A program made the translations under genes and the position numbers. A DNA stretch of 64,000 nt from Escherichia phage Turkey3, in sequence record PQ471515.1, one strand, 5' to 3'. The number at the start of each line of letters is the position of its first letter. The first letter of the stretch is position 1. The notes under the pieces were generated by a model that saw nothing but the letters and a program-made list of their open reading frames with translations, was not told where the DNA came from and did not search any database. Below, in pieces: positions 8,469-10,823 of the stretch.

Positions 8469-8496
8469 TTGACAAACGCAAAGAATGTGATATAAT
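8469..8496 (+). promoter_or_regulatory. Sigma70-type early promoter, TTGACA-N16-TGaTATAAT
   Basis: Exact -35 and -10 hexamers with a TGn extended -10, about 40 nt upstream of the ClpA-like start. Confidence 0.6.
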
Positions 8497-8534
8497 GTTT
8501 ATTAATTAGAGTGACTACTCATTTAGGAGAATAC

Positions 8535-10823
8535 ATGAATCTTACCCAATTATTCAAAAAAAGCGACGAACTGGCAACTTCTCTGGGTCATACCTTCTTG
8601 ACTATTGACCATCTAAGTGCTACAGTACTGACAATCGATAGCATCAAAGCAGTATTTGAAGATATGAACATCGATGCAGACAACCTACACGGTCGTTTGA
8701 TTGCATATCTGAAGAATACAACATTCCCACATGCACCTAAAAGTGCTGATGGTGATGAAGCGAACCGCACATCACTTCTTGTGAACCGTGTAGTTCAGGA
8801 ACTTTCTAAGAAATCAGTAATTGAGCAACTTAAACGTGATGATTTCTCAATTGATGCTTATTTTGTACTGTTTGAGTGTTTGTCCTTCCCAAATACTGCA
8901 CTAGAAGCAGCATTGCGTGAAGAGGGTATCACTTGTACTGAAGCAGCACGAACTCTACAGAAGCACGTAGAAGCAATCGACAACGGAATCAACCTTCAAA
9001 GCATTAGTGATGAGCCAACTGGGGAGAAAAAAGTGGCACAACAACAACCATCGTCCAAACAAAAAGGTTTAGAAGATTACACCACTAACCTAACCGCACT
9101 TGCAAAAGAAGGTAAACTTGACCCAATGATTGGTCGCCAGAAAGAGCTTTCGGCACTGATTGAAACTCTGGCCCGTAAGACTAAGAAGAATGCCATCCTG
9201 ACTGGTGAAGCTGGTGTTGGTAAAACTCAAATCATTGATGGTCTAGCACAGGCAATCGCTGATGGTGAAGTACCAGAGCATCTTAAAGATGTTGAAATTC
9301 TGTCTCTGAACGTAGGTGCACTGACTGCTGGTACTAAGTACCGTGGTGAGTTCGAAGAACGTATCGATAACCTACTCAAAGAACTGAAGAAACGTGAAAA
9401 CACTATTGTGTTCATCGATGAAATCCATATTATGGTTGGTGCTGGTTCAGCAAGCAACGGTTCTATGGATATGAGTAACATGCTCAAACCTGCACTATCT
9501 CGTGGTGAGATTCGTGTAATCGGTGCAACAACTTACGCTGAATATCGTAAAAACATCGAAAAAGATAGTGCACTAACTCGCCGTTTCATGAAAATTGATG
9601 TAGTTGAGCCAACAATTGATGAAACCCGTGCGATTGTGAATGGTTTGAAATCTACTTATGAAACTTTCCATAACGTAGAGTTCAGTACTGAAGCAATGGA
9701 TGCAGTTATTACACTAAGTGATAAGTTCCTGAAGAACAAACACTTCCCTGACAAAGCAATCGACCTAATGGATGCGGCGGCAGCGAAAGTACGTTCTCGT
9801 GAAACTGATGATAACATCATCACTGTTGCACTGATTCAAGAAGTTGTTGCAGGTATCGCAAACCTAGATATTAACGTGGTTGCTTGCACTGAAAGTGAGC
9901 GTATGCGTAATCTACCAGATGCACTACGTTCTCGTGTATACGGTCAAGAAGAAGCAGTACAGAAACTGGTTGATAACGTGATGGTAGCTCGTGCTGGTCT
10001 GCGTGATAAATCAAGTGTTCAAGGTGCATTCATGTTTGTTGGGCCATCTGGTACTGGTAAAACTGAAATTACCAAAGCACTGGCTGATGCAACTGGCTCT
10101 GAACTGATTCGTTTCGATATGTCCGAGTTTTCACAGGAACATACTGTTGCTAAACTGATTGGTTCACCTCCAGGCTATGTTGGTCACGATTCCGGTAACG
10201 GTCTGCTACTCGACAAGATTGAGCAGTTCCCGAATGCAGTACTGTTGCTTGATGAAATCGAAAAAGCTGATCGTAAAGTACTACTAACCTTCCTACAGGT
10301 TCTGGACGAAGGACGTTTGACTGGTTCACAAGGTAAAACTGTTTACTTCAATAACGTAACTGTTATTATGACAACTAACCTTGGTGCAGCAGATTCAACC
10401 AAGCGTAGTATTGGGATGAGCGGTAGTGATACAGCACAAGATAAAGCGATTAAAGCATTCTTGCCACCTGAATTCATCAACCGTATCGATAGTATTGTGA
10501 CATTCAAAGACCTAAGCAGCGAAGCGATTGACAGCATCATTGATAAGTTCATGGGTAGTCTGAATGAACAAATCAAAGACCGCAAAGTTAAAGTTTCCCT
10601 GACTAAAGCGGCACGTGAGTGGTTGGCAACAAATGGTGTTAAAGTTGGGATGGGTGCACGTCCAATGAAACGCACTATTGAGCAAAACATCCGTGTTCCA
10701 CTAGCTAAAGAGATGTTGTGTGGTTCTCTGGTTAATGGTGGTAACGTAACGTTTGATGTGATTGATGGTAAATTGGCTATCAAACCTAAACGAACTAAAG
10801 CAGTAGAAAAAGTTATTGCGTAA
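8535..10823 (+). CDS. ClpA-like double AAA+ ATPase (Clp_N domain plus two nucleotide-binding domains, no ClpB-type middle domain)
   Basis: Walker A motifs GEAGVGKT (D1) and GPSGTGKT (D2), Walker B LLLDEIEKA; IGM tripeptide where ClpA has its ClpP-docking IGL loop; start moved from the GTG at 8511 to the ATG at 8535, which has an AGGAGA RBS. Confidence 0.85.
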   Translation: MNLTQLFKKSDELATSLGHTFLTIDHLSATVLTIDSIKAVFEDMNIDADNLHGRLIAYLKNTTFPHAPKSADGDEANRTSLLVNRVVQELSKKSVIEQLKRDDFSIDAYFVLFECLSFPNTALEAALREEGITCTEAARTLQKHVEAIDNGINLQSISDEPTGEKKVAQQQPSSKQKGLEDYTTNLTALAKEGKLDPMIGRQKELSALIETLARKTKKNAILTGEAGVGKTQIIDGLAQAIADGEVPEHLKDVEILSLNVGALTAGTKYRGEFEERIDNLLKELKKRENTIVFIDEIHIMVGAGSASNGSMDMSNMLKPALSRGEIRVIGATTYAEYRKNIEKDSALTRRFMKIDVVEPTIDETRAIVNGLKSTYETFHNVEFSTEAMDAVITLSDKFLKNKHFPDKAIDLMDAAAAKVRSRETDDNIITVALIQEVVAGIANLDINVVACTESERMRNLPDALRSRVYGQEEAVQKLVDNVMVARAGLRDKSSVQGAFMFVGPSGTGKTEITKALADATGSELIRFDMSEFSQEHTVAKLIGSPPGYVGHDSGNGLLLDKIEQFPNAVLLLDEIEKADRKVLLTFLQVLDEGRLTGSQGKTVYFNNVTVIMTTNLGAADSTKRSIGMSGSDTAQDKAIKAFLPPEFINRIDSIVTFKDLSSEAIDSIIDKFMGSLNEQIKDRKVKVSLTKAAREWLATNGVKVGMGARPMKRTIEQNIRVPLAKEMLCGSLVNGGNVTFDVIDGKLAIKPKRTKAVEKVIA

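Follow-up and report, generated by a model that had tools for sequence, protein, structure and literature searches.

ClpA is highly conserved across most RaK2-like phages (Attai et al. 2018, PMC6102473), jumbo-phage ClpA and ClpP have both been listed (Iyer et al. 2021, PMC7824862), and the Clp set of Atu_ph07 comprises ClpX, ClpA, ClpB, ClpP and ClpS (PMC6102473). The literature searched yielded neither functional or transcriptomic data nor knockouts for phage ClpA or ClpP, and no characterised phage-encoded ClpAP machine; the fEgEco12 genome paper makes no mention of Clp. Here we describe a clpA-like gene in a 64,000-nucleotide (nt) stretch of Escherichia phage Turkey3 (PQ471515.1; the whole stretch is hereafter the window). 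It is the same gene, with the same neighbours, as the annotated ClpA genes of RaK2-like phages (121Q gp581, which carries the annotation 'ClpA-like', RaK2 ORF069, GAP32, CBB_235 and fEgEco12 g327). The entire window is colinear with positions 159,543-222,830 of fEgEco12 at 99% identity, and we assign it to the fEgEco12/WPEC5/CMSTMSU group of RaK2-like jumbo phages as another isolate. Both clpA and clpP are already annotated and noted in the literature; the value of the present analysis is correction and context, not discovery.

We favour the reading, with a probability of roughly 0.6, that the gene encodes the unfoldase of a phage-encoded ClpAP protease whose partner would be the phage's own ClpP. 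Under this model, clpA would be transcribed alone from a sigma-70-type extended -10 promoter prior to the late genes, and the phage-specific N-domain, with its patch FVLFECLSFPNTALE, would pick substrates. The phage ClpA would then unfold these and pass them into the phage ClpP, with the complex at work in the cytoplasm either before the late genes are expressed or at the same time. We infer the physical pairing of ClpA and ClpP from their co-occurrence, their shared promoter type and the retained docking position, and we likewise infer the timing and any substrate, whether host, defence or early phage proteins. The degradation of host proteins and the anti-defence role that an earlier note on this sequence had offered as candidates are speculation.

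The earlier note had observed that the window holds no ClpP gene and had concluded that the unfoldase must use the host ClpP or act alone. The observation stands, as phmmer found no open reading frame (ORF) for ClpP, ClpS or ClpX in the window. The conclusion does not: fEgEco12 and every ClpA-bearing RaK2-like genus have a ClpP. The note had also proposed searching the rest of the genome for clpP and adaptor genes, and we ran this search with phmmer on all six-frame ORFs of the whole genome of fEgEco12, the 99%-identical relative. The E. coli ClpP query matched one ORF at 6.9e-33, namely g207 (80,543-81,238), which lies about 87 kb from clpA. Neither ClpS nor ClpX of E. coli, used as queries, had a match among these ORFs. 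Because these phages encode their own ClpP elsewhere, dependence on host ClpP is probably absent.

The g207 product matches Pfam CLP_protease (PF00574) with 143 bits over positions 2-179 of 182. Its Ser-His-Asp triad is intact, aligns with S111, H136 and D185 of E. coli ClpP and is invariant in 17 sequences, although the protein falls below the ClpP equivalog threshold (TIGR00493, 153 versus 308.6 bits). By tblastn, the phage ClpP was present in every RaK2-like genus with the ClpA, and it forms a parallel clade with identities from 100% down to 61%. Phage and E. coli ClpP have a conserved N-terminal PxVxE region in common, and the phage protein has a conserved C-terminal extension of about 20 amino acids (aa), ...KVKRRxGxxxWV. 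Relative to E. coli ClpP, Y60 is replaced by T or V and F82 by S, Y, G or N; we take these two to be docking-pocket residues, and the replacements are a lead and not a test.

In RefSeq, the g207 homologues are labelled 'head maturation protease' (NC_025447, NC_019526 and NC_041878). This label is probably a misannotation, because true ClpP models score three times higher (153-156 bits versus 51 bits for the ClpP-related head-maturation model) and because there is a separate T4 gp21-like prohead protease, annotated as fEgEco12 g348 and placed by coordinate mapping at about 43303-43923 of the window.

The second link between clpA and clpP is the promoter. The elements on the clpA side are as follows.

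8469 to 8474, plus strand: -35 hexamer TTGACA of the clpA promoter, with a 16-nt spacer to TGaTATAAT.
8488 to 8496, plus strand: extended -10 element TGaTATAAT of the clpA promoter, within an 11-mer, TGTGATATAAT, that is common to the phage clpP promoter.
8487, 31464, 36171, 57656 and 62883, plus strand: GTG[AC]TATAAT sites of the window.

The clpA promoter matches the sigma-70 consensus at 12 of 12 positions and has the extended -10 TG in addition, so the strong extended -10 promoter described in the earlier note holds up. The window contains only two such 12/12 sites, where 1000 shuffles lead one to expect 0.145. A sigma-70-type extended -10 promoter upstream of clpA is kept in seven lineages, including 121Q, RaK2, CBB, fHe-Yen9-04 and two metagenomic relatives. 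Compared with the clpP promoter of fEgEco12, cTTGTAGACAAAtacgaacacTGTGATATAAT, the clpA promoter, cTTGTTGACAAAcgcaaagaaTGTGATATAAT, matches at 28 of 38 positions by hand count, and the two have in common cTTGT[T/A]GACAAA...TGTGATATAAT. The clpP genes of 121Q and RaK2 have extended -10 promoters as well.

The signature GTG[AC]TATAAT occurs 30 times on the plus strand of fEgEco12 and not once on the minus strand; a hand estimate from base composition gives a chance level of about two per strand. These sites precede clpP, the clpP-like gene g214, an AAA ATPase gene, clpA and the genes for a gp55-like sigma factor, ssb, primase and an exonuclease. A second promoter class, TTGACA...AGTACTGTATAAT, with the conserved spacer AGTACTG before TATAAT, is found in the terminal repeats and in the small-gene region at 291-324 kb; the window has no site of this class. 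By these signatures, clpA is assigned to the phage's extended -10 class, with the replication genes and clpP. Because its promoter has the GTG[AC]TATAAT signature and lacks the AGTACTGTATAAT signature of the terminal repeats, a pre-late, middle-type class would be just as probable for clpA as an immediate-early one, and 'pre-late' seems a safer word than the 'early' of the earlier note. We found no transcriptome for RaK2-like phages in the literature searched.

The remaining evidence comes from the protein, whose gene and domains are laid out below.

8525 to 8529, plus strand: Shine-Dalgarno sequence AGGAG, 5 nt before the ATG at 8535; AGGAG or AGGAA is kept in the alignment of relatives.
8535 to 10823, plus strand: clpA-like coding sequence (CDS), 762 aa plus stop, with the TAA at 10821-10823.
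8535 to 8984, plus strand: N-domain, a diverged double Clp repeat (aa 1-150).
8862 to 8906, plus strand: N-domain patch FVLFECLSFPNTALE, conserved among phages.
9096 to 9884, plus strand: D1 AAA+ module (aa 188-450).
9885 to 10769, plus strand: D2 AAA+ module (aa 451-745).

The program-called ORF opens at a GTG at 8511. We took the ATG at 8535 as the real start because of the AGGAG 5 nt upstream and because all annotated or aligned homologues begin there. The top NCBIfam family was ClpA (TIGR02639, 750.9 bits over model positions 5-733 of 734), followed by ClpB (634 bits) and ClpV (544 bits). Both curated equivalog cut-offs were missed (TIGR02639, 750.9 versus 993.15; NF008263, 648 versus 1350). 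Since ClpA scores best of the families and yet stays below the equivalog threshold, the phage protein is a divergent ClpA-type subfamily and not an NCBI 'equivalog'. Pfam matches were AAA, AAA_lid_9, AAA_2 and ClpB_D2-small. In a PDB search, E. coli ClpA (1ksf) aligned at 7e-178 in a single colinear stretch (residues 21-734), whereas ClpB, ClpC and Hsp104 chains each aligned in two stretches. The phage protein therefore lacks the M-domain (the coiled-coil middle domain), as the earlier note had supposed.

The N-domain is the most diverged part. The N-terminal 150 residues are 19% identical to those of E. coli ClpA, and Pfam Clp_N only just reached its cut-off (21.3 versus 20.7 bits). An AlphaFold2 model of this domain had a predicted local distance difference test score of 84 and a predicted template modelling (TM) score of 0.80. 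When the model was searched with Foldseek against the PDB, all of the top 50 matches were Clp/Hsp100 N-domains, and the best TM-scores (0.67/0.73) were obtained with the N-domain of E. coli ClpA.

Motifs were read from an alignment of 22 phage homologues, three cellular ClpAs and E. coli ClpA, and have the following positions.

9204 to 9227, plus strand: D1 Walker A, GEAGVGKT.
9336 to 9347, plus strand: D1 pore loop, KYRG.
9405 to 9428, plus strand: D1 Walker B, IVFIDEIH.
9579 to 9587, plus strand: D1 Arg fingers, RRF.
10041 to 10064, plus strand: D2 Walker A, GPSGTGKT.
10173 to 10184, plus strand: D2 pore loop, GYVG.
10242 to 10268, plus strand: D2 Walker B, LLLDEIEKA.
10410 to 10418, plus strand: IGM tripeptide (aa 626-628), aligned with the IGL ClpP-docking tripeptide of E. 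coli ClpA.
10479 to 10490, plus strand: D2 NRID.
10653 to 10664, plus strand: D2 sensor-2, GARP.

Walker A and B of both modules, sensor-1, the Arg fingers, sensor-2 and the KYRG and GYVG pore loops were invariant in the alignment. A disrupted ATPase site, which the earlier note had named as a finding that would overturn its proposal, was thus absent from all 22 phage homologues. With the N-domain fold and both AAA+ modules in place, the claim of a complete phage-encoded ClpA-type protein is borne out, and the gene most likely encodes a functional ClpA-type double-ring AAA+ unfoldase. The IGM likewise lies where the note had placed the docking loop. Its hydrophobic-Gly pair is retained throughout the phage clade. 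The position that follows is occupied by M, L, A, V, G, S, F or H, where the canonical tripeptide [ILV]-G-[FL] has F or L, and the loop beyond it is shorter than that of cellular ClpAs.

The gene has a long history in this group of phages. The clpA region is 99.1-99.5% identical to that of the coliphages WPEC5, EC.P1, fEgEco12, vB_Ec-M-J, CMSTMSU and Ecwhy_1, and about 84% identical to that of 121Q and PBECO4 (Asteriusvirus). At the protein level, identity is 99.9% to fEgEco12, 92.6% to 121Q, 75% to RaK2 and 61% to CBB. A tblastn search returned 86-100% identity in Asteriusvirus, about 75% in RaK2 and K64-1, about 69% in Salmonella and Erwinia relatives, about 61% in CBB, XbC2, fHe-Yen9-04 and the SNUABM phages, and 41% in PA5oct-like Pseudomonas phages. 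In a search of 5.8 billion proteins, identities fell smoothly from 100% to 53% and then jumped to about 41% for cellular ClpAs; this gap indicates that the phage ClpA is a discrete phage clade. The neighbourhood is the same in 121Q, RaK2, CBB, fHe-Yen9-04 and two metagenomic contigs with 54-55% ClpA identity. In the conserved order, genes for a NUDIX protein, a gp15-like protein and a protein of about 500 aa lie on one strand, with clpA on the other and a convergent gene of about 3330 aa beyond it. Against 121Q, the ratio of nonsynonymous to synonymous substitution rates (dN/dS) is 0.039 overall and 0.07 in the N-domain. Because synteny, promoter and terminator persist in relatives with as little as 54% protein identity, cellular ClpAs stand at about 41% and dN/dS is 0.04, we regard clpA as a long-standing core gene that RaK2-like jumbo myoviruses have passed on vertically under purifying selection, and not as a host fragment.

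Two database oddities concern the same region. In several 121Q-type genomes the 2.5-kb clpA query matches at two places, although tblastn shows one ClpA copy only; the additional match could reflect a short non-coding repeat, for instance a promoter or terminator. In the CMSTMSU record (GenBank MH494197.1), the clpA region is divided into several CDSs ('ClpA' twice, 'ClpB' and five hypotheticals) and clpP into two, which looks like assembly frameshift errors and not biology.

Several observations weigh against a ClpAP protease made up of the phage's own two subunits. The third docking residue here is M and not the canonical L or F, and some lineages carry A, G, S, V or H; such a relaxed residue could mean weak or no ClpP docking. 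The phage ClpP appears to differ from that of E. coli at the presumed pocket positions Y60 and F82, and covariation between docking loop and ClpP pocket, looked for in the alignments, gave no clear pattern. The identity matrices of ClpA and ClpP correlate moderately (Pearson 0.73, Spearman 0.33), with one pairing (P0010 with P0121) assumed. The clpP genes of CBB and BF lie inside an operon without a promoter of their own, so that co-regulation of clpA and clpP is not universal. The presence of a ClpP in the window's own phage is deduced from relatives that are 99% identical. Finally, one ClpP peptide was reported from CBB virions.

The virion proteomes bear on where ClpA would act. In CBB virions, CBB_233, CBB_234 and CBB_236 were detected and CBB_235 (ClpA) was absent. 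The phAPEC6 virion proteome includes the giant protein gp245 and the gp15-like gp248 and lists no Clp protein; from gene order, phAPEC6 gp246 should be the ClpA. On these two proteomes, the phage ClpA is not a virion component.

A narrower form of the two-subunit reading is that phage ClpA and ClpP form a private (orthogonal) protease, neither feeding host ClpP nor fed by host ClpA or ClpX, in which the FVLFECLSFPNTALE surface would single out defined host proteins, for example ones with defence or regulatory functions, for pre-late destruction. The variable third docking residue, the altered pocket positions and the conserved C-terminal tail would all fit a private interface, and we put this form forward tentatively, as a possibility with clearly less than even odds.

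The phage ClpA could also work without ClpP, as a stand-alone unfoldase or assembly chaperone that remodels or unfolds proteins of the phage as the virion is built, the adjacent 3333-aa virion protein being one candidate. This would explain why clpA is fixed within the structural module, as its place beside the giant gene is invariant in all lineages examined, down to 54% identity, and translocase or virion-assembly roles have been proposed for jumbo-phage ClpA and ClpX (Iyer et al., PMC7824862). The third docking residue is also relaxed, to A, G, S or H in some lineages, but the hydrophobic-Gly pair before it is retained throughout and the phages always have a cognate ClpP. Little can be read from position alone, because whole structural modules are generally syntenic in these phages, and the promoter of clpA is sigma-70-type and of the replication-gene class, whereas the neighbouring structural genes carry the T4-late-like TAAATAAA. 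We consider a role without ClpP unlikely.

Hijacking of the host protease, in which the phage subunit would either bind E. coli ClpP or join host ClpA in mixed assemblies and so turn the host enzyme towards new substrates, is in our judgement quite improbable. IGM is chemically close to IGL and occupies the same position, cross-docking is conceivable given the PxVxE region common to both ClpPs, and there is a precedent in SPO1 Gp53, which acts on ClpCP (PMC6873191). However, the premise that the phage has no ClpP is false, and the altered pocket positions of the phage ClpP (Y60 and F82), together with its C-terminal extension of about 20 aa, suggest a diverged and possibly private interface.

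That clpA is a recently captured host gene fragment, or a moron without a fixed role, is almost certainly wrong: its G+C content is slightly above that of the 64-kb window (42% versus 36.7%), but the protein is just 41% identical to E. coli ClpA and belongs to a deep phage-only clade, synteny, promoter and terminator are fixed across genera, dN/dS is 0.04, and the promoter whose absence from related phages the earlier note had named as telling for such a fragment was present in every relative examined.

The phage-encoded ClpAP reading also draws on the layout of the locus, whose flanking elements are given here.

8456 to 8463, minus strand: T4-late-like motif TAAATAAA, upstream of the divergent 498-aa structural gene and back to back with the clpA promoter.
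10828 to 10855, both strands: bidirectional intrinsic terminator hairpin with flanking A and T runs, which would serve both clpA (plus) and the convergent giant gene (minus).

Motifs of the TAAATAAA type lie on the minus strand upstream of both structural genes that flank clpA and resemble the T4 late promoter; ATAAATA is the late consensus published for phage CBB (PMC5259590). The TAAATA core of the site at 8456-8463 is kept in all five aligned genera. Because the sigma-70-type clpA promoter adjoins this T4-late-like motif, the 110-nt intergenic region 5' of clpA appears to hold back-to-back promoters of two classes. At the other end, the hairpin folds with -17.7 and -16.6 kcal/mol on the two strands (z = -5.2 and -5.4) and is present in seven lineages, with compensatory stem changes in relatives. 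We therefore describe clpA as a predicted single-gene transcription unit that runs from the sigma-70-type promoter to the bidirectional terminator.

The gene lies on the strand opposite to the late virion genes on both flanks and runs in the same direction as the phage's non-late genes. The earlier note had called it divergently transcribed between the neck genes and the giant gene. Embedded among virion genes on the strand opposite to theirs, it does diverge from the T4 gp15-like gene (Pfam T4-gp15_tss) and the 498-aa structural gene, but the 3333-aa giant gene runs towards it and is convergent. In this giant virion protein gene (window 10857-20858, minus strand) we found no Pfam domain. Its first ATG sits only 5 nt past a TAAATAAA motif, and for this reason the true start is probably the second Met at about 20828, where the fEgEco12 annotation also begins.

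Other protease-like genes were seen in the fEgEco12 genome. We rejected g214 (L009 35170-35778) as a second active ClpP, as it scores 20.6 bits with Pfam and the Ser and Asp of its triad are replaced by N and V. It is a degenerate ClpP-like paralogue with a hydrophobic N-terminus, and is preceded by the promoter core also found at clpP and clpA, TGTGATATAAT. The gene g414, annotated 'protease adapter protein', matched no Pfam or NCBIfam model, and its sole assignment was to a PHROG with the label 'ATP-dependent protease'. HslV-like homologues of N-terminal-nucleophile peptidases (PHROG 1040) are encoded by two genes, g216 (L009 36128-36721, beginning MTC...) and g518 (L014 11560-12057), and no HslU was seen among the fEgEco12 genome annotations; the phage thus carries several orphan protease subunits.

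Elsewhere in the window, there is an insertion of about 1.2 kb relative to fEgEco12 at 46451-47636, just past the major capsid gene region. Its 365-aa ORF (46516-47613, plus strand) has a treble-clef zinc finger (DUF4379), and its promoter (46455-46483) is the window's only other perfect 12/12 sigma-70 site. The insertion looks like a mobile or homing-endonuclease-like element.

Host AAA+ proteases are a known target of phages, which inhibit or redirect them. Here, a clade with genomes of about 350 kb maintains, under strong purifying selection, both a ClpA and a ClpP. Within its coliphage group clpA and clpP share a promoter type, which offers a testable E. coli system for what a virus gains from a regulated protease of its own.

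Among known systems, E. coli ClpA (PDB 1ksf, 6w1z) is alike in length class (758 versus 762 aa), in the N-D1-D2 order without an M-domain, in its identical Walker A and B, sensor, Arg-finger, KYRG and GYVG motifs, and in having a hydrophobic-Gly-x tripeptide. The two proteins are 41% identical overall and 19% in the N-domain. Unlike E. coli ClpA, the phage protein has IGM and not IGL, with the following loop three residues shorter, and its D2 pore loop is followed by a one-residue insertion (GNG). Unlike the E. coli system, there is no clpS beside the phage clpA or elsewhere in the phage genome. Atu_ph07 and the PA5oct-like Pseudomonas phages are, like the RaK2-like phages, jumbo phages with both a Clp ATPase and ClpP (PMC6102473; PMC7824862). 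The PA5oct-like ClpA is 41% identical to the ClpA described here, and Atu_ph07 adds ClpS, ClpX and ClpB, whereas the RaK2-like type has only ClpA, ClpP and a degenerate ClpP-like paralogue. Like the action of SPO1 Gp53 on ClpCP (PMC6873191), the phage ClpA would be a phage intervention in Clp-dependent proteolysis at takeover. Proteins of the Gp53 type are small adaptor-like or inhibitor proteins that act on host enzymes, whereas here the phage supplies a whole unfoldase and peptidase.

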